Part shown: positions 3,986 to 39,894 of the stretch, piece after piece | Position numbering within the stretch: position 1 is the first letter of the stretch | Layout of the letters: the number at the start of each line of letters is the position of its first letter | Source of the DNA: a virus | Taxonomy: Duplodnaviria > Heunggongvirae > Uroviricota > Caudoviricetes | Length of the DNA stretch: 40,040 nucleotides | Strand: one strand, 5' to 3' | IMG/VR virus record: IMGVR_UViG_2547132278_000009 | Notes under the pieces: generated by a model | What the model saw: only the letters and a program-made list of their open reading frames with translations | What the model was told of the DNA's origin: nothing | Database searches by the model: none | Translations under genes and position numbers: made by a program

Positions 3986-4067
3986 TGTTTCATCCTTGAA
4001 ATAAGTAGGCGCTAACATCCTGTCAGCGCCACAATGATAGTAAATTAGTACTTACTTATCCAGATAC

Positions 4068-10482: not shown

Positions 10483-10556
10483 TGATGGAAAACTCCTTTT
10501 TCCGTTAATTCTACGCATTCATTGCGCTAATAGTAAGTATATACTTACCAATTGAG

Positions 10557-19435: not shown

Positions 19436-19474
19436 AGATCCCTCTAAAACACACAGAGCGCGTCCATGCGCTCT

Positions 19475-19517
19475 AAAACAACTTGTTTACTGCATCTGCT
19501 AACCAACTTGTTTTCTG
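19475..19517 (-). promoter_or_regulatory. Two copies of the palindromic operator family (AAAACAA-N-TTGTTT) upstream of the terminase small subunit gene
   Basis: AAAACAACTTGTTTAC (19475-19490) and AACCAACTTGTTTTCTG (19501-19517), with adjacent inverted repeat AGAGCGC-N6-GCGCTCT. Confidence 0.45.
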
Positions 19518-19630
19518 GGGTGTTTAATTAGATCTGGCATGTCTTACGAAGCCTGCTTCCGTATATATTTAATAAGTTACTTATTATTTATATATATAGA
19601 TGCAGGTCTTTAAATAAGCTCCCAGACCGA

Positions 19631-19897
19631 TTACATCACCAGTAACTTCGCTTTGGCTCGACCTAAAGTGGTTAACCCAAGAGTTCGGCGGTGATAGCGA
19701 TTGTCACTGCGTTGGCGCGTATGCCCTTTCTCCACCAGCCCCTTTTTTATCAGAGCGCGAATTGAGAACTGGATACTTTGCTTGGTTGTCTTGTACGGCA
19801 AAACTTCAAGCAATTCGTCCAGATCAAGTAGATGACCTCGCTCATAACCGAGATTGAGCGTTTTGATTATGTCCTTTTGTTTGTCGGTTAACGTCAT
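19631..19897 (-). CDS. Small basic protein, possibly winged-helix DNA binding
   Basis: 88-aa ORF 9 bp downstream of the GNAT-like gene; basic C-terminus; no firm motif. Confidence 0.35.
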   Translation of the reverse strand: MTLTDKQKDIIKTLNLGYERGHLLDLDELLEVLPYKTTKQSIQFSIRALIKKGLVEKGHTRQRSDNRYHRRTLGLTTLGRAKAKLLVM

Positions 19898-19906
19898 GGC
19901 AAATCC

Positions 19907-24795: not shown

Positions 24796-25218
24796 ATGAA
24801 ATACTCGCTTCTCCCTCTACTAACGTTACCAGTGTTGATGCTTACCGCGTGCCAATCACGCCCAATATCAATCCATGACGCCAAACCAGCACCGCAGGCC
24901 AAAGTGTTCAAGTATCAAAGCGCAGCGCCAGCTACGTTGGTGGTAATGAGAGACACAGGTTTTGTAGGAGCTGGATGTGATGCTTCCATTTTCATCAACG
25001 GCGAAACTGTCGCAAAACTGGCTACAGGCGAAAAAGCGACTTTCCATTTAAATGCCGGAGAATTAATTGTGGGTGCATCTCTTGAAGGTGCAGGTTTATG
25101 TGCTCTAAACCCCGCTCGTCAAGAGCGAGAAACGACTCTGAAGAATGGAGACACAAAAGCGTTCAGGGTGTTCACCAGCAATTCTGGTGACATCGACATT
25201 CTGCCAACAACTCTGTGA
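24796..25218 (+). CDS. Putative lipoprotein
   Basis: ORF 24754..25218; signal peptide MKYSLLPLLTLPVLMLTAC with lipobox L-T-A-C; preceded by GGGAGA RBS. Confidence 0.55.
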   Translation: MKYSLLPLLTLPVLMLTACQSRPISIHDAKPAPQAKVFKYQSAAPATLVVMRDTGFVGAGCDASIFINGETVAKLATGEKATFHLNAGELIVGASLEGAGLCALNPARQERETTLKNGDTKAFRVFTSNSGDIDILPTTL

Positions 25219-25747
25219 TGACATGACAACCAAAGATATTACCTACGGTATCCAAGCTGAACTCTGGCCGCGAGATTACACTAACGTTGAAAAACTACTG
25301 ATGTTCTGGCGCAGAGAACAAATTCCTGTAAGGGTCACTCTCGAAGATGGCCAGGCGTTTTGCATGTACGTTTATGGCCTCATGCCATCTCGTAACAAAG
25401 TTGACCTTTGCCCAGCCCCTTTTGACAAAGAAAATCGTATAAGGCTCCCACTTGAACGCATTAGTACAATTGAATCAGGTGTGGTTGACAGTATCGCTCA
25501 CGATTTCAAAGGTCGACTAACAGTTCACCCTGATTATGTCGATAATCGGCCATCACGCCGCGATTTTTTTGCAATTTGCAACCAAGCCTACAAAGCAAAC
25601 AAATCTATAAGGGTGTACATGGCGGATGGCCGTGAAATTGAGGGGGTGTCAGCAGGCGCAGATGCTTGTCAGGTTACACTACGTGTCGAGAACGGTAGAA
25701 AAATAGTTGTTTTGTTCGATTGGGTTGAACGAATTTTGCCTTTTTGA
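25214..25747 (+). CDS. Hypothetical protein with apparent internal duplication
   Basis: ORF 25145..25747; likely start MTTKDITYG overlapping the lipoprotein stop; two similar segments (IPVRVTLEDGQAFCMYVYG / IRVYMADGREIEGVSAG). Confidence 0.45.
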   Translation, partial: CDDMTTKDITYGIQAELWPRDYTNVEKLLMFWRREQIPVRVTLEDGQAFCMYVYGLMPSRNKVDLCPAPFDKENRIRLPLERISTIESGVVDSIAHDFKGRLTVHPDYVDNRPSRRDFFAICNQAYKANKSIRVYMADGREIEGVSAGADACQVTLRVENGRKIVVLFDWVERILPF

Positions 25748-26071: not shown

Positions 26072-26101
26072 AATAACCGGCTAAGTCCGGTTATTATTTT
26101 T
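26072..26101 (+). terminator. Rho-independent terminator
   Basis: AACCGG-CTAAGT-CCGGTT followed by ATTATTTTT. Confidence 0.65.
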
Positions 26102-26342: not shown

Positions 26343-26993
26343 ATGGCTAACATTATCATTTCTAAAAAATCCATCATTGAAGCTGCATCTATTGTATCCG
26401 ATGAACTGCGCGAAAAAGCAGATCTGGCAACTCAAACATATAACGAACATTATAAAAATGGTACGCACACTAAAGCAGACAAAGCAAATATGCAAGCTGC
26501 GACCACTAAACTTGCTTACTTCATCAACAACGTCGTAAACGCAGTAGAAGACGAAAAATTATGCTCTGTTTTCTACTATGCGATTAAAGCAAGCAAACAA
26601 GCGCCAGAAGTATTTTTCCGTGATGCAATGACTAATAGTTATTCTCTGGAAAAACTGGTTTATCTGGTTAAATCAATTAAATCTGGTAAATGCGTTTATT
26701 CCATCGCTGATATGTCAGGATCTCGTGTATTCGCTTTAATCGATATGATTAACGACGAGATCGACACGTTCACCAATGGCGCTGTTTTCGATTTAATGAA
26801 TGAAGCTAAAAAAGCGTGTGAAATTAAATTGGACGCTGGCTATACTCAAGCCAACCAGTTGATCAATCTTTGCGAACGTCTTGGACTTGTTGAAAAAGTC
26901 AAAGGAGCTGGGAGCGCGAAAGCTGGTACTCAGCAATATCGCTTCATTAAAAATGATTTCTACAATTATTTAGCTGATGCTTTCAAAGCGTAA
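26343..26993 (+). CDS. Hypothetical protein (216 aa), first gene of AT-rich operon
   Basis: ORF with AT-rich codon usage unlike flanking phage genes; GGAAAAA RBS-like; no motif recognised. Confidence 0.6.
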   Translation: MANIIISKKSIIEAASIVSDELREKADLATQTYNEHYKNGTHTKADKANMQAATTKLAYFINNVVNAVEDEKLCSVFYYAIKASKQAPEVFFRDAMTNSYSLEKLVYLVKSIKSGKCVYSIADMSGSRVFALIDMINDEIDTFTNGAVFDLMNEAKKACEIKLDAGYTQANQLINLCERLGLVEKVKGAGSAKAGTQQYRFIKNDFYNYLADAFKA

Positions 26994-27502: not shown

Positions 27503-27530
27503 AGCGCCCACTATGGGCGCTTTTTTCGTT
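27503..27530 (+). terminator. Rho-independent terminator (hairpin copy 2 plus T6)
   Basis: AGCGCCCA-CTA-TGGGCGCT followed by TTTTTTCG. Confidence 0.7.
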
Positions 27531-27547
27531 TCCAATACTCCCACCAT

Positions 27548-27577
27548 AACGCGCCAATGATGGCGCGTTTTTTATTG
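27548..27577 (+). terminator. Second tandem rho-independent terminator
   Basis: GCGCCA-ATGATG-GCGCG followed by TTTTTTATT. Confidence 0.6.
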
Positions 27578-27986
27578 TCTTTGATTCACTCCAACAACAT
27601 AAAAACAAGCGCCAAAATAACGCCATAGACGCACTTTTATATCCTTACCAGTACATACCCATTACTTAACACATTAACGCGCTTAAAACGCGTTATATTG
27701 CGCTATAGCGCATAATTAATCATTGGCTTTTAGTCTTGCTATGTGATCCGCGTTTAATTGTCGGCGCGGATCGGCATTTTGTTTTGTTCCGTATCCGCTC
27801 GCGTATTATGTGCGCGTGATTTTCACATAATCACACCACTTAATCACGTATGTGATTATGCTACGAAAGAAATCTGGATGTCTCAGGCGACGAAAGTCAT
27901 CATAATTTTCCCCGCTCACCTGTCCGACAACCGCTGGTTGGATTCCACCAGCTTCCCGATGTTTTTTCTACATAAAGGCGAATGCA

Positions 27987-28099
27987 GCCGTTTCCCGAAA
28001 AAATCCTGGCCGTTTCCCGTCGGCTCATGAATACGTTCCTCGCCGTTTCTGAAAATTTCCCTGCGGCAGCTGGTGTCTATAGAGAAAGGGCCGTTTCTG
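27987..28099. repeat. Iteron-like direct repeat array A (GCCGTTTCC/GCCGTTTCTG, 4 copies)
   Basis: GCCGTTTCCC at 27987 and 28009 (22 bp apart), GCCGTTTCTG at 28042 and 28090. Confidence 0.6.
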
Positions 28100-28112
28100 G
28101 CCCTCTTCTCAG

Positions 28113-28612: not shown

Positions 28613-28632
28613 AAATAACAAATTGTTTTCTT
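28613..28632 (-). promoter_or_regulatory. Palindromic operator copy (AACAAATTGTT core) upstream of the 160-aa gene
   Basis: AATAACAAATTGTTTTCTTG read directly; flanking TTAATTAACACCAACAAG block is shared with the site at 31143. Confidence 0.45.
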
Positions 28633-28797
28633 GTTGGTGTTAATTATCGTTGTACGAATAAGGCGTCAAAGTGGAAAGTTGCGGTAGCCGGACGGGAACA
28701 GGTGGGTTTGTCGGTTGCCTGGAGGTAAGAGGTTGGTGTTATTAGCCTGAGGGAAACAGGATGGTCATTTAAGACCACCAATGCTGGTGGCCTTAAT

Positions 28798-29833: not shown

Positions 29834-29959
29834 TTCACTCTCCGTAGTGTATTGGTTATTTTTCTATTCTATGATCGTAAGTATGTACTTACAATACAAA
29901 AAAGCCCCGTAAGGATGGCGGGGCTGTCGTACTGTCGACTAATTGCCACTTGCACATTA

Positions 29960-30280: not shown

Positions 30281-30299
30281 GTAAACAACTTGTTTTCTC
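30281..30299 (-). promoter_or_regulatory. Palindromic operator copy (GAAAACAA-G-TTGTTTAC) in the 5' leader of the basic-protein gene
   Basis: Read directly; lies within a ~60-bp module duplicated at 30765-30840. Confidence 0.5.
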
Positions 30300-30424
30300 A
30301 ATGGCGTAAATAATACCAGTAAGAAAACGGCTACAAAGCATATTGATCAGGCGCATGAGCGATATGCAGGTTCTTCCCTGCGGCTATAGAGAAATTAAGC
30401 CAGCAATGCTGGCTTTGGTTGGGG

Positions 30425-30764: not shown

Positions 30765-30783
30765 TTAAACATGTTGTTTTCTG
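30765..30783 (-). promoter_or_regulatory. Palindromic operator copy (GAAAACAA-C-ATGTTTAA) upstream of the acidic 109-aa gene
   Basis: Read directly; part of duplicated promoter module. Confidence 0.5.
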
Positions 30784-30892
30784 AATTGCGTAAACAATAC
30801 CAGTAAGAAAACGGCCACAAAGTATATCGTTACGGTGCTGCGCTGCCCGGAGGTTAATAGCGACAAAAGCCACCGTGCTGGTGGCCTCACTC

Positions 30893-31111: not shown

Positions 31112-31142
31112 CTCTTCATCCTCACTTCGTTTATATAACGTC

Positions 31143-31159
31143 TAAACATGTTGTTTACT
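31143..31159 (-). promoter_or_regulatory. Palindromic operator copy upstream of the 72-aa gene
   Basis: TAAACATGTTGTTTACT with the same flanking TTAATAACACCAACAAG block as the site at 28613. Confidence 0.45.
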
Positions 31160-31491
31160 TGTTGGTGTTATTAACGCAATAAGACAAAGGCGAAAAAGGA
31201 TTTTATTCCGGTGAATGTGGTTTTGGCAGTGAGTTTTCAGGTTCAGTACCGAGTACACTTTTTACATTATTCTGATTTAGTGGCCGAAAGTGGCTGGTGG
31301 CAGAGTAATCCTCTCCCCAAAAACCTACTGAAATCGATTGTGCCCCGTTGGCTGTCTGGCACAATTACGCTGTAGCTGGGCATTCAGAGGGAATCCAGCG
31401 GTAAGCAAGCCCGCCTACGTGAGCGCCTCTCTTCTTCCCGCACATTACAGGTGGGTAGCCGCAACTCTCCCTCTCGCTATACCGGTACGCC

Positions 31492-31622
31492 GCCGTTCCT
31501 GAACCGGCATCGAGCCTTTTCCCGAAATCCACACAGGCAACTCGACCGTTTCCCTGAAAATCCCCAGCCGTTCCCCGAAGGCAACCCAGCCGTTTCTGTA
31601 GCGGGATGCAACCTTTTCCCTG
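31492..31622. repeat. Iteron-like direct repeat array B (6 copies of G/A-CCGTTTCC-type units at about 22-bp spacing)
   Basis: Units begin at about 31492, 31514, 31545, 31567, 31589, 31610; several followed by GAAA. Confidence 0.65.
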
Positions 31623-31699
31623 TATGGACCGAAGACTGACCGTAGGGGTGTTACGGGGGGATAAAATCAGGAGTTGAATAAATACGAAAAAGGAGGCGA

Positions 31700-32600
31700 C
31701 ACCCCTCCTTCCCTCCCCACTTATACATACCTGGCTTCTTCGCTATACATGTTGTGTTTTATCTGTCTCAACCTCTCTATAGGCGTTAATGCTCACTCCT
31801 TCCAGAATGTTCTATACGGCGACTATTTCTGTTGGTGAATTGGGTGTGTTGTTTTCTCTGTCGGTGTATGTGGTTTCGTTCGTTTTGCGGTGGTTCTTCT
31901 ATGGGGTGTTCTCGTCGTTTTGGTGATTGTTCTTCTCCGTGTATGGAGTAATGGCAGGTGGGCGATTGCTTTCGTTATTGTGTTTGAGTTGTTTGTCTGG
32001 AGTGTGTGAAAGGCTTTTGTAGTTATTCGTGTATTGGGTAATGGCGTTTCCCGTGATTGTTATGTTTCGTGTCTTTTGGGATTGAGAGAAACCTTGCGGT
32101 TATAGGCTTCGTTGGGTTTTCAGTGATTCTGGTGTTTCTTCGCTGTTTGGGGAATGGCGTGTCGTGGGTATTGCGCGTATGAATGTTTTCGGATTGCCTG
32201 TGAAAGTTAGGTTGGCTGTCCGGTAGCCTGGGGAGAAGAGGTGGGTCTTTTCGGTAGCCTGCCATAAAGAGGTTGGTTGTTTTTGGGAATGGCATTTGTG
32301 TTATTTAGTTGTTTTGTTATGCCTGAAAATAAGTTGTTTATATGGTTGTGTAACGCAACGGGAGCGATTTTGAGCGTGTGTTTTTGTTGGTAGTGTGTTG
32401 GGTCGTCTGTGGTGAAAATTGGACGCTGTGGCGCTGTCTGCTGCGTAGAATTACGGGTATAAGAAGTGATGTGTGAAAACGTCAATTTTTTAGACCAAAT
32501 CGGGTGAAAGCGTTGATGTTTCGTTGATCTGTTATTCAGTTGTTTTCTTGATTGTATAAACAACTATAACTTATTGATATTTAAGGATGTGATTGCGGGT
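31700..32600. other. About 0.9 kb ORF-free tract with extreme G+T richness on the plus strand
   Basis: Long runs of G/T-only words; recurring GG(G/T)AATGGC units near 31951, 32037, 32143, 32287; only low-complexity ORFs. Confidence 0.6.
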
Positions 32601-32682
32601 ATGGAAAGGGAGTAGTGGCGATCAACGGATTCTTATAGAAAAGAATCAAATTGTGACCGCCATTATCAATGAGTTGCAACCG

Positions 32683-34087: not shown

Positions 34088-36121
34088 TTACTTAACCTGA
34101 TGGCCTGGTTTAGCACCGGCATCCGGGCTTAACAGGAAGATATCTTTCCCGCCGGGGCCAGCAGCCATCACCATGCCTTCAGAGATACCGAAGCGCATTT
34201 TACGCGGAGCCAGGTTAGCCACCATAATGGTGTGACGACCAATCAGTGCCTGTGGATCTGGATAAGCGGAACGGATGCCTGAGAAGACATTACGCTTTTC
34301 ACCACCGAGATCCAGCGTCAGGCGCAGCAGTTTGTCAGAACCTTCGACAAACTCCGCGTTTTCAATCAGCGCCACACGCAGGTCAACTTTGGCGAAGTCG
34401 TCAAAGGTGATGGTTTCCTGAATCGGGTCGTCAGCCAGTGGGCCAGTTACCGGTGCAGCTGTGGCTTTCACTTCTTCTTTGGATGCTTCCACCAGTGCTT
34501 CCACCTGTTTCATATCGATACGGTTATACAGTGCCTTGAACGGATTCACTTTATGGCCCAGCAGCGGTTGCTGGATACCATCCCAGGTCAGTTCTGTATT
34601 CAGGAATGCTTCTGCACGTTCAGTCAGTTTCGGCAGTACCGGTTTCAGGTACGTCATCAGCACGCGGAACAGGTTAATGCCCATAGAGCAAATCGCCTGC
34701 AGATCGGCATCGCGTCCTTCCTGCTTCGCCACCACCCACGGAGCCTGTTCATCGACATAGCGGTTAGCCAGATCAGCCAGCGCCATGATTTCACGAATCG
34801 CTTTACCAAATTCGCGGCTTTCCCATGCTTCACCAATCACTTCAGCGGCATCAGTAAAGGTTTTGTACAGTTGCGGGTCAGCCAGTTCGCCTGCCAGCAC
34901 ACCGTCAAAACGCTTATTGATAAAGCCCGCGTTACGGGACGCCAGATTCACCACTTTGTTCACGATATCGGCATTCACGCGCTGAACGAAATCCTCCAGG
35001 TTGAGATCGATATCATCAATGCGCGAAGAGAGTTTCGCAGTGTAGTAGTAACGCAGGCTGTCAGCGTCAAAATGATTCAGCCAGGTGCTGGCTTTAATAA
35101 AGGTGCCGCGAGACTTGGACATCTTCGCACCGTTCACCGTCACATAGCCATGAACAAACAGGTTGGTCGGCTTGCGGAAGTTGCTGCCTTCCAGCATGGC
35201 AGGCCAGAACAGGCTGTGGAAGTAAACGATATCTTTACCGATGAAGTGGTACAGCTCGGCGGTGGAGTCTTTCTTCCAGTATTCGTCGAAGCTGGTAGTG
35301 TCGCCGCGTTTGTCGCACAGATTCTTGAAGGAACCCATGTAGCCAATCGGTGCGTCCAGCCAGACGTAGAAATATTTGCCCGGTGCGTTCGGAATTTCAA
35401 AACCGAAGTACGGCGCATCGCGGGAGATATCCCACTGTTGCAGGCCAGATTCAAACCACTCCTGCATTTTGTTTGCCACCTGCTCCTGCAACGCACCGCT
35501 GCGGGTCCATGCCTGCAACATTTCGCTGAAAGAGGGCAGATCAAAGAAGAAGTGTTCGGAATCACGCATTACCGGCGTAGCACCAGAAACTACCGATTTC
35601 GGCTCGATCAGTTCAGTCGGGCTGTAAGTCGCGCCGCAGACTTCACAGTTATCGCCGTATTGATCTGGCGCTTTACATTTAGGACAGGTGCCTTTTACAA
35701 AACGGTCCGGCAGGAACATGCCTTTTTCCGGGTCGTACAACTGAGAGATAGTGCGGTTTTTAATAAAACCGTTCTCTTTCAGGCGAGTATAGATAAGCTC
35801 AGACAACTGACGGTTCTCTTCGCTGTGCGTCGAGTGATAGTTGTCATAGCTGATGTTAAAGCCTGCGAAATCAGTCTGATGTTCCTGACTCATTTCGCCA
35901 ATCATCTGCTCCGGTGTGATACCAAGCTGCTGTGCTTTCAGCATGATCGGCGTACCGTGGGCATCGTCGGCACAGATGAAATTAACCTCGTGGCCGCGCA
36001 TTCGCTGGTAACGAACCCAGACATCAGCCTGGATGTGCTCCAGCATATGGCCGAGGTGGATTGAGCCGTTAGCGTACGGCAGCGCGCACGTCACCAGAAT
36101 TTTCTTCGCGACTTGGGTCAT
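34088..36121 (-). CDS. metG: Methionyl-tRNA synthetase
   Basis: Near-identity to E. coli MetG as I recall it (start [36 protein letters not shown] motif present); ORF-track N-terminal extension discarded. Confidence 0.97.
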
Positions 36122-36278
36122 AGTAGGCATTACTTCTTTGTAGTGAAAAGGGGCTTGATAGTAACAAAATGGCCTTATGTCTGCCATGTGATAACAGCAT
36201 TTCTCATAAATGATTAAATGTCGTAGCTGGAGTACACTACAAGGCGACAATTGCGCAAATTAAAATAAAGGAGACGGG

Positions 36279-37379
36279 ATGAGCGAGTCCAAATCGCCGG
36301 ATGCCCTGAGAGCAATGGTAGCCGGTACGCTGGCTAATTTTCAGCACCCAACCCTGAAACACAACCTGACTACGCTTAAAGCGTTACACCATGTTGCGTT
36401 GATGGATGACACACTGCATGTCGAACTAATCATGCCTTTCGTGTGGAATAAGCCTTTTGAAGACCTGAAAGAGCAATGTAGTGGTGATCTGCTCCGTATC
36501 ACTGGCGCAAAGGCTATTGACTGGAAGCTGTCGTACAACATTGCCACGCTTAAGCGTGTCAAAAACCAACCAGGCATTAATGGCGTTAAGAACATTATCG
36601 CCGTCAGCTCAGGCAAGGGCGGCGTGGGTAAATCCTCCACGGCGGTAAACCTGGCACTGGCGTTGGCTGCTGAAGGTGCGAAAGTTGGTATTTTGGATGC
36701 CGATATCTATGGTCCATCAATTCCAACCATGCTGGGCGCGGAAAACCAACGTCCAACCTCACCTGACGGTACTCACATGGCACCTATCATGTCTCATGGC
36801 CTGGCAACCAACTCTATTGGTTATCTGGTCACCGACGACAATGCAATGGTGTGGCGTGGACCGATGGCCAGCAAGGCGCTGATGCAGATGTTGCAGGAAA
36901 CTCTATGGCCTGATCTGGACTATCTTGTTCTCGATATGCCGCCGGGCACTGGTGATATTCAGTTGACGCTGGCGCAGAACATTCCTGTAACTGGTGCTGT
37001 TGTGGTAACTACGCCGCAAGACATCGCGCTGATCGATGCGAAGAAAGGCATTGTGATGTTCGAAAAAGTCGAAGTGCCGGTACTGGGTATCGTCGAAAAC
37101 ATGAGTGTGCATATTTGCAGTAACTGCGGTCATCACGAGCCAATTTTCGGCACCGGTGGCGCAGAGAAACTGGCCGAGAAATACAACACGCAGTTGTTAG
37201 GCCAAATGCCACTTCATATCTCACTTCGTGAAGATCTGGATAACGGAACACCAACCGTTATTAGTCGTCCAGATAGCGAATTTACGGCTATTTATCGTGA
37301 CCTCGCAGATCGCGTTGCTGCCCAAATGTATTGGCAAGGTGAAGTAATACCTGGCGAAATCGCATTCCGCGCAGTGTGA
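36279..37379 (+). CDS. mrp: Mrp/ApbC iron-sulfur cluster carrier ATPase
   Basis: Near-identity to E. coli Mrp as I recall it (P-loop SGKGGVGKSS, CSNCGHHE motif); divergent from metG. Confidence 0.95.
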   Translation: MSESKSPDALRAMVAGTLANFQHPTLKHNLTTLKALHHVALMDDTLHVELIMPFVWNKPFEDLKEQCSGDLLRITGAKAIDWKLSYNIATLKRVKNQPGINGVKNIIAVSSGKGGVGKSSTAVNLALALAAEGAKVGILDADIYGPSIPTMLGAENQRPTSPDGTHMAPIMSHGLATNSIGYLVTDDNAMVWRGPMASKALMQMLQETLWPDLDYLVLDMPPGTGDIQLTLAQNIPVTGAVVVTTPQDIALIDAKKGIVMFEKVEVPVLGIVENMSVHICSNCGHHEPIFGTGGAEKLAEKYNTQLLGQMPLHISLREDLDNGTPTVISRPDSEFTAIYRDLADRVAAQMYWQGEVIPGEIAFRAV

Positions 37380-39234: not shown

Positions 39235-39614
39235 TTATCTCTCTCAGTATGTTGCGATGGCGTAAATTTGACGACATCAAATATTTTGGATGGCATCAAC
39301 TTTATCCGCGAGCTTAGTTCGGCTCTTCTCTGTAATGCGGTTAATAATGTTTTCGTTCTGACGCCTTCGTGTATCCTCATCCCTGGCACAAGAACTACAT
39401 CGCAGGGGAGATGCTCAGGTGACAAATCATTTTGGGCATCGCTAATCAGTCGTGTAATCTCTCTTTCAAGCCGACCGCCTAGCTCTGTTTTAGTGCAATG
39501 TTCTGACCAATCGCCAGCCTCAAGCAGCGCGAGAATGCTTAAAATATCGTCCAATAGATCAGTGGTATTATCGACTTCCTTCTGAAACTCACCGGCTACT
39601 GATTTATGCATCAT
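39231..39614 (-). CDS. Hypothetical protein (127 aa)
   Basis: ORF translationally coupled to the 208-aa gene. Confidence 0.45.
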   Translation of the reverse strand: MMHKSVAGEFQKEVDNTTDLLDDILSILALLEAGDWSEHCTKTELGGRLEREITRLISDAQNDLSPEHLPCDVVLVPGMRIHEGVRTKTLLTALQRRAELSSRIKLMPSKIFDVVKFTPSQHTERDK

Positions 39615-39894
39615 TCGTCATCCTCATCCGAGTCATCCTCATCACAGGATGAGAGTAGTGGGTTAGTCATTCGCCCTACTTGAGTGGCGTAGCCACGCCG
39701 ACAGAGATTGCGCAGCACACTGTATATTTCGAACATCTCGGTTCGTTCATCGCCAACATCAAGCTCAGATGCTATAGCGTGGCATTCAGTCGCGAGAGCC
39801 GATATTTTCGTAAGCGTAAAGCCAATGCCGTCTGTAACACCTGCTCCTTGCAGACTAAATTAGAGCTCCTTCTAAATTAGACGGAGTTCTATTG

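Follow-up and report, generated by a model that had tools for sequence, protein, structure and literature searches.

Array B, a set of six co-oriented 22-bp units on the plus strand at positions 31492 to 31633 of a 40,040-nucleotide stretch of viral DNA (the window), is a real, phased and non-coding repeat array that is unlinked to the plasmid Rep/iteron system. The window belongs to an SSU5/pHCM2-like phage-plasmid, and array B together with a second array of the same repeat type, array A, is an undescribed conserved element of this clinically common family; we found neither the arrays nor the surrounding non-coding region described in any paper. Array B is probably a phased double-stranded DNA platform for the cooperative binding of a putative protein encoded by the conserved core of these elements, because its cores are selected relative to its spacers, its spacings are close to two or three helical turns, and its length changes by whole units.

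Structure and conservation of the two arrays

The units of array B, which is supported by sequence, a weight matrix, cluster statistics and conservation, start at 31492 (GCCGTTCCT), 31514 (GCCTTTTCC), 31545 (ACCGTTTCC), 31567 (GCCGTTCCC), 31589 (GCCGTTTCT) and 31611 (ACCTTTTCC), giving start-to-start spacings of 22, 31, 22, 22 and 22. Five of these starts agree with the approximate ones of the original prediction, which had placed the last unit at 31610. The core that it proposed, (G/A)CC(G/T)TT(T/C)CC, is matched exactly by four of the six units, while units 1 and 5 end in T rather than C; the core of array B is CC(G/T)TT(C/T)C(C/T). The GAAA that had been seen after several units was recovered as (T)GAA(A) directly after units 1 to 4. 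Tandem Repeats Finder did not report array B because the repeated part is only the core of approximately 9 bp.

The motif CCKTTYCY has 13 matches in the 40-kb window, 12 of them on the plus strand, and 10 fall within the arrays (six in array B and four in array A, at 27988, 28010, 28043 and 28091). The largest cluster per 130 bp in 2000 first-order Markov shuffles consisted of one match (1670 shuffles), two (327) or three (3) and never six, and in 5000 local-composition shuffles it never exceeded two. The clustering in array B is thus non-random, and the six repeats with a periodicity of approximately 22 bp that had been predicted are real. Outside both arrays, CCKTTYCY was rarer than expected (three matches compared with approximately 9.6 in shuffles, both strands), which hints at avoidance of stray sites.

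A weight matrix was trained on array-B units of several genomes, with array A not in the training set, and was scanned against a reconstruction of the whole ~110-kb element. It scored the six array-B units at 16 to 22 bits and found array A (27987 to 28064, plus strand), confirming that the array approximately 3.5 kb away has the same repeat type. Array A consists of three units with the motif and orientation of array B, at 27987, 28009 and 28042 (23.4, 13.5 and 11.8 bits, with 23.4 for the first unit). A fourth array-A core, at 28090, is located in the loop of a terminator hairpin, and with this core the array spans 27987 to 28098. Matches of at least 15 bits outside the two arrays were isolated single sites (30074 and 1828), and arrays A and B are the only clusters of the core motif in the ~110-kb element.

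We compared the locus with 12 relatives fetched from six genera and with two distant relatives that were reached via a neighbouring protein. Array B was found at the same place, with the same core and three to six units, in all 12 relatives and in the two distant ones, and the same holds for arrays A and B as a pair, with array A beside a gene for a 160-aa protein in all of them. The hosts of relatives with both arrays are E. coli, Salmonella, Enterobacter, Citrobacter, Klebsiella and Cronobacter, and both arrays also occur in metagenomic contigs. Across clades, identity to the window was 86% at core positions and 59% at spacer positions (Mann-Whitney p about 1e-6). Among 51 distinct versions from plasmids and viral contigs, 31 have spacings of 22-31-22-22-22, seven have 22-22-22, and the rest are close variants. 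Gains and losses in array B involve whole 22-bp units: PhiR41_1 and one Citrobacter plasmid each have one unit fewer, and the piece missing from the Citrobacter plasmid measures exactly 22 bp. Cores that are kept, spacers that drift and indels of whole units together form a signature of protein-binding sites, and on the evidence of these alignments the array-B cores are under purifying selection. A motif scan of 2.9 million viral contigs returned SSU5-like loci and unrelated perfect 22-bp or 11-bp tandem repeats of other phages; this class of repeat pattern is common among phages, and the scan added no homologue.

The carrier element and its gene-free region

The 1-kb stretch around array B matches the Escherichia phage-plasmids Cyrano (pLF82), PhiR41_1 and CMS-2020a at 90% to 96%. 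A sensitive search recovered the array-B region in 712 PLSDB plasmids from Klebsiella, Escherichia, Enterobacter, Salmonella, Citrobacter and Cronobacter, nearly all of which are non-mobilizable and approximately 110 kb long, and among 5426 complete E. coli genomes, 244 have the region, plasmid-borne in every case. The window encodes tail, head and terminase proteins, two ParB_N proteins, a DEAD/ResIII helicase, a FljA-like protein and metG-apbC. In the last of these (34088 to 37379), metG encodes a methionyl-tRNA synthetase at full length and apbC/mrp is divergent from it, as on the E. coli chromosome, and the pair appears to be host-derived cargo on the phage-plasmid. The FljA homologue (25145 to 25747, plus strand; Pfam Flag1_repress, E = 2.5e-84, with a weak Hfq match) is kept in every syntenic SSU5-like relative whose fetched locus extended that far. 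FljA is a post-transcriptional repressor of phase-1 flagellin, and the FljA papers give no nucleotide-level binding site.

Array B lies in a conserved CDS-free region that spans 31112 to 32680 according to RefSeq annotation and the alignment of relatives. RefSeq annotation has no feature over this region in the E. coli plasmids among the matches listed, nor in the fetched Salmonella, Klebsiella, Enterobacter, Citrobacter and Cronobacter plasmids; to the right of 32680, gene content differs among relatives. The small genes around the arrays all run leftward. Immediately upstream of array A in the leftward sense is the hairpin terminator of the leftward 160-aa gene (28085 to 28110, minus strand; GGGCC-agaaac-GGCCC with a T-rich tail), which was identified from sequence and covariation, its stem covarying between clades (GGGCC/GGCCC versus GGGGC/GCCCC) around a constant GTTTC loop. 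Immediately upstream of array B in the same sense is a terminator-like hairpin (31687 to 31713, minus strand; AAGGAGG-ggtgtcg-CCTCCTT followed by TTTTCGTATTT), the stem of which differs in sequence among three clades and which gives the better fold on the minus strand. Seen from the leftward genes and their terminators, the two arrays are placed and oriented alike. The hairpin side of array B also holds the most conserved block of the region (31638 to 31727; ACCGTAGGGG..TACGGGGG..TTGAAT..TACG..GCGA..CCCCTCC..CCC..CTTATA), within which TTGAAT, TACG, GCGA, CCCCTCC and CTTATA are invariant, and distant Klebsiella and Cronobacter plasmids match the region in this block alone. In the 100 bp to the left of array B, a promoter scan gave no convincing sigma-70 site, its single match being approximately 260 bp away. 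Two minus-strand promoter-like sites lie 60 to 130 bp beyond array A, in an island beside that array (27570 to 27990) that also contains bidirectional terminators and nested palindromes (ATAATCACA...TGTGATTAT).

Two further features had been reported close to array B. The inverted repeat exists, with 8-bp arms and the predicted spacer (ATTGTGCC-N13-GGCACAAT), but at 31337 to 31365 instead of 31350 to 31380, and outside the closest relatives it is only partially conserved. A sigma-54 site at the TGGCAC of this repeat was ruled out, as its spacing is off by one and it is not conserved. The Chi octamer (GCTGGTGG) was located at 31293 to 31300 on the plus strand. It is one of 13 such octamers in 40 kb compared with 1.1 expected (for example 27945 on the minus strand and 28783, 30877 and 31293 on the plus strand), and most relatives have a Chi site directly after array A (CAGCTGGTGGAC).

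Several other repeats were observed in and around the gene-free region. Its part from 31740 to 32680, approximately 0.9 kb without CDS, is conserved in all clades with many invariant blocks; the minus strand consists of 40% A, 30% C, 13% G and 17% T, and could be a lytic-phase A/C-rich RNA (perhaps an Hfq-type sponge) or a DNA element. Direct repeats of 30 to 31 nt are common to 32218-32278 (two copies) and 28679-28766 (three copies). The repeat copies at 32221 and 32252 contain CGGTAGCCTG, the window's only exact matches to CGGTAGCNTG, which resembles the RfaH ops core GGCGGTAGnnTG but lies here on the plus strand. A third family, GT(A/T)T(G/T)G(A/G)GTAATGGC(G/A), has three copies in the window, all inside the conserved non-coding region (31933 to 31960, 32023 to 32050 and 32136 to 32163), and up to five in SSU5-clade relatives. 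A repeated element of 26 to 77 nt (minus strand TAACACCAACAAG.AAACAA.TTGTT) occurs at 28617-28671, 30284-30338, 30768-30822, 31145-31170 and 32328-32353, shortly before the start codons of several small leftward genes and with one copy in the gene-free region; it could be a shared leader, promoter or operator. The gap itself was ruled out as a decayed copy of the 160-aa gene, as there is no similarity between them. Elsewhere in the window, the palindrome GTAAGT-N4-ACTTAC occurs five times compared with 0.09 expected, exactly at 10533-10548 and 29877-29892 and with one mismatch at 4040, 16028 and 22822. The two exact copies and the 22822 copy are in AT-rich intergenic DNA, and a related AT-rich palindrome is near 19561. 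By analogy with the C1 sites of P1, this palindrome is likely to be the operator of a dispersed repressor.

Coding, RNA and plasmid-maintenance explanations

It is extremely improbable that array B belongs to a gene for a protein in which a peptide motif is repeated. Stop-free minus-strand stretches of 100 to 160 codons cross the array, and a CDS is called here in three GenBank records (CYRAN_104, SSU5_109 and a PhiR41_1 hypothetical protein), but the minus strand is open in each of its three frames simultaneously, relatives differ in which frame is longest, the 22-bp period is not a multiple of 3, relatives also differ by 22-, 9- and 1-bp indels, and the NCBI pipeline calls no gene here in RefSeq plasmids among the E. 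coli matches listed or in those fetched from five other genera. With no single conserved frame and no pattern of multiple-of-three indels, a coding region was ruled out. The minus strand is open in all frames because it is T-poor, and this openness and the varying frame explain why the 'hypothetical protein' calls differ among Cyrano, PhiR41_1 and SSU5. An RNA-level element, in which the units would serve as repeated motifs or small hairpins for an RNA-binding protein, is also quite unlikely. The minus-strand units, C(A/G)GGGAAACGG, resemble the GGA-loop sites of CsrB-type sponges, and the binder could be CsrA or the FljA-like, Hfq-like protein of the element (25145 to 25747), a Flag1_repress protein with a weak Hfq match that is encoded nearby. 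GC stems of 3 to 4 bp are possible around the core in several units, one pHCM2 unit (GTTCCTGAAAAGGAAC) is a perfect hairpin, one stem position shows a G-C to U-G change between clades, and the fourth array-A core sits in the conserved loop of a terminator hairpin with a covarying stem. However, RNAalifold gave weak structures (-16 and -13 kcal/mol over 280 columns for the two strands) with few covariations, there is no consistent hairpin per unit, and on the minus strand array B comes after, not before, the terminator. In LF82 (Cyrano) lysogens, RNA-seq of the ORFs called over the region is at or near background, with the ORF over array B barely above background and the ORF in the adjacent 31740-32680 region at background level (PMC9928086, S1 table). 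The spacing is held at 22 or 31, near two and three helical turns, which argues for relevance at the level of DNA rather than RNA. Rfam returned no family over the array region at the gathering threshold and, in E-value mode, only a weak match to Hrs1 (27510 to 27576, E = 0.0026); no tRNA or tmRNA was found. Array B does not fit a CsrB/RsmZ-like sponge RNA, with no consistent hairpins to display the GGA motifs, no promoter/terminator pair and no Rfam match.

The original prediction had likened array B to iterons, and a replication-origin iteron set did not survive comparison. The array has six co-oriented direct repeats at approximately 22-bp phasing, but no cognate rep gene adjoins it or is flanked by its repeats, the genes between arrays A and B gave no Rep family match, and the repeat sequence does not covary with Rep type in either array. 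The window's only matches to the DnaA box TTWTNCACA are at 26097 and 38031, with none near array B. No low-stability DNA that could act as an AT-rich unwinding element abuts array B (the nearest 40-mers are at 31743, in the 3.4th percentile, and at 32543), GC skew is monotonic with no origin signal, and two IHF-consensus sites at the far right of the gap are not conserved. The origins of relatives have unrelated iterons. In pHCM2, repA is flanked on both sides by approximately 20 copies of the 19-bp CTACTCTCTACAGTGGTTA (47900 to 50000 of the fetched pHCM2 stretch), and the array lies approximately 76 kb off in record coordinates. In the closely related pHH107-1, at least 14 copies of the 17-bp GATATGCTGTCAGCGGT mark the rep region and flank the start of the record (1094 to 1642 and 39593 to 39698 of two fetched pieces); this region is approximately 75 kb by coordinate (approximately 34 kb round the circle) from its array at 75.5 kb; the pHH107-1 gene table lists no rep CDS at the iteron region. 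Both CTACTCTCTACAGTGGTTA and GATATGCTGTCAGCGGT are unlike the array-B core, no weight-matrix match was found near rep or par, and IncFIB, rep_cluster_488 and rep_cluster_763 elements all have arrays A and B in unchanged form. As iterons vary with Rep type while arrays A and B are constant, array B is not the plasmid origin. That RepA (IncFIB type) would bind the arrays as iterons of a plasmid-prophage origin is so improbable as to be effectively refuted: the resemblance is one of form only, as approximately 22-bp direct repeats in two arrays, and the rep genes are flanked by their own, different iterons. The 352-aa gene beside parA was rejected as a Rep, as it is swappable, is absent from SSU5 and Cyrano and has no adjoining repeats. 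The claim that the arrays form a functional pair was upheld in that the pair is conserved around the small-gene cluster, but the iteron function attached to it was not.

Another kind of DNA platform, such as the centromere of a ParA/small-ParB system, a terminase small-subunit (pac) site or the accessory sites of a recombinase, is very unlikely. Arrayed direct repeats in phase make up pac sites and the centromeres of ParR, TubR and ParG systems, the centromere sites of N15 are dispersed, and a 216-aa protein of the element has a weak TubR fold match. Against this, the array does not adjoin a par operon, since the par genes (parA and a small adaptor gene) are approximately 45 kb away and have other repeats ahead of parA; the terminase genes lie at a distance of 12 kb, with the most AT-rich non-coding DNA beside them at 19.5 kb; and the two arrays point the same way and include no core-type crossover site. 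A non-coding gap of 470 bp ahead of the putative small terminase gene (19436 to 19906) contains the window's least stable DNA (19561), and the end of the linear SSU5 record maps near this gap by rough offset. The gap is the likeliest pac/cos candidate, and a better one than array B.

Candidate roles, candidate binders and known systems

Two roles for the array deserve closer weighing. Array B may be a lytic (phage-mode) replication origin or origin enhancer with a putative initiator on its iteron-like units, which is possible but doubtful. Array A would then be a second cis site, by analogy with P4 ori/crr or SPP1 oriL/oriR, replication by the element's helicase, primase and Pol III alpha would start nearby, and priming might use a transcript with the purine-rich tract beside array B. 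This reading runs a close second because of the iteron-like form, the paired arrays and the repeat-rich non-coding setting: the array has the classic four to six co-oriented repeats of approximately 22 bp with whole-unit copy changes, a related array is present a few kb away, and array B is in a 1.4- to 1.6-kb conserved non-coding region with several other repeat families. Furthermore, the element encodes a full replisome yet its lytic origin is not annotated, array B is followed by a conserved, moderately AT-rich stretch (31660 to 31693) and a polypurine/polypyrimidine tract (31700 to 31719), and a protein with a predicted winged helix and weak fold similarity to the winged helices of Orc1/Cdc6 and RTP is encoded approximately 1 kb from array A. 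The array has no DnaA box or GC-skew signal, however, the DNA beside it is not among the window's least stable, and no initiator gene adjoins it; it is neither within nor beside a replication module, the replisome genes lying approximately 45 kb away (at least 45 kb for the DnaB-like helicase, primase and dnaE), and the winged-helix homologue occurs without arrays in Serratia.

The role that we favour, with somewhat less than even confidence, is one in transcription at terminator-promoter junctions of leftward small-gene units rather than in replication. Asymmetric recognition cores of approximately 9 to 10 bp, in one orientation and approximately two helical turns apart in arrays A and B, would be bound cooperatively along the arrays by a sequence-specific protein from the conserved core of SSU5-type phage-plasmids. 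Such a protein would exert transcriptional control or insulation at the junctions of leftward units in the small-gene (probably early) region: each array would lie downstream of the terminator ending one leftward unit and upstream of the next, so placed that the bound protein may block read-through or set the activity of the next promoter. We prefer this role because of the shared terminator-relative position and orientation of the arrays, the missing origin hallmarks and the silence in lysogens. On the other hand, six iteron-like 22-bp repeats are more typical of origins than of transcription factors, and there is no mapped sigma-70 promoter close to the left of array B. Moreover, intergenic elements between co-directional operons are always near a terminator, so the coupling of array and terminator may be incidental.

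A bolder proposal, which we consider unlikely, is that arrays A and B, each with its conserved G-rich hairpin terminator, constitute a previously undescribed control module of SSU5/pHCM2 phage-plasmids in one of two versions. The module would be either a terminator-linked protein roadblock or insulator that silences early small-gene units in the plasmid state, or a bipartite lytic origin that does not depend on Rep and takes its primer from the polypurine transcript beside it. If the second version were true, a lytic origin would coexist with a swappable RepA/iteron plasmid origin. In either version, the putative binder could be a protein without a recognisable DNA-binding family among current annotations.

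Neighbouring proteins were considered as binders. The 216-aa protein (26343 to 26993) is restricted to the SSU5/pHCM2-type phage-plasmid group, and its model has a predicted N-terminal helical domain and C-terminal winged helix, with weak Foldseek matches to Orc1/Cdc6 winged helices, RTP, PadR and TubR. A Serratia element has a homologue of this protein and lacks the arrays; the protein was rejected as binder since it and the arrays differ in phyletic distribution. The 160-aa protein is found together with the arrays, and its model, made with high confidence (pLDDT 86), matched no solved fold and no known DNA-binding fold. A 103-aa basic protein and seven other small neighbours had no family matches, and a family search found no response-regulator or Xis-like protein among the neighbours.

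SSU5/pHCM2-type phage-plasmids are common in clinical Enterobacteriaceae and are also carriers of resistance genes. To our knowledge, there has been essentially no study, at the level of DNA, of how they change over between life as a plasmid and lytic growth. Array B, array A and the surrounding gene-free region are the clearest candidate cis-control elements outside the Rep/Par module. The identity of the binder, once found, would provide a handle on the lytic origin or on early-gene silencing, and would put right the spurious 'hypothetical protein' annotations of several deposited genomes.

A tandem array of protein-binding repeats is a familiar kind of element, and the context of array B departs from the one that defines iterons. 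Like the iterons of theta plasmids and phage-plasmids (P1 oriR/incA, RepFIB, F oriS/incC and the 22-bp repeats of R6K), the arrays have co-oriented repeats approximately two turns apart, with a conserved core, variable spacers, whole-unit copy changes and two related arrays separated by genes; unlike them, arrays A and B have no cognate rep between or beside them, no DnaA box and no adjacent AT-rich unwinding element. In P4, ori and crr lie 4.5 kb from each other and consist of type I octamer repeats to which the alpha protein binds; in SPP1, oriL and oriR contain G38P boxes. By analogy, the arrays resemble both pairs as two clusters of one short repeat a few kb apart, but no alpha-like primase-helicase or G38P-like initiator was recognised near them, and no sequence match stands behind the comparison. 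The minus-strand units are similar to CsrB/RsmZ in that most contain GGA or GGGA in a purine-rich context every ~22 nt, whereas array B lacks consistent hairpins, covariation support, a flanking promoter/terminator pair and an Rfam match.

Tandem operator arrays offer asymmetric repeats on one face of the helix, as in OmpR and PhoB boxes (20- to 22-bp phasing), the direct repeats of P2 C (22 bp) and Cox/Apl/Xis filaments. Arrays A and B share with them an intergenic, promoter-proximal setting and an implied cooperative binding, although six units are unusually many and no promoter was mapped beside array B. The stoperators of cluster A mycobacteriophages are asymmetric repressor sites that are oriented to transcription and block elongation, as 20 to 30 scattered single copies. 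The sites described here have no sequence relationship to stoperators and differ from them in being clustered in two phased arrays; they resemble them as asymmetric sites in one orientation, located in short intergenic regions at the ends of units and silent in lysogeny.
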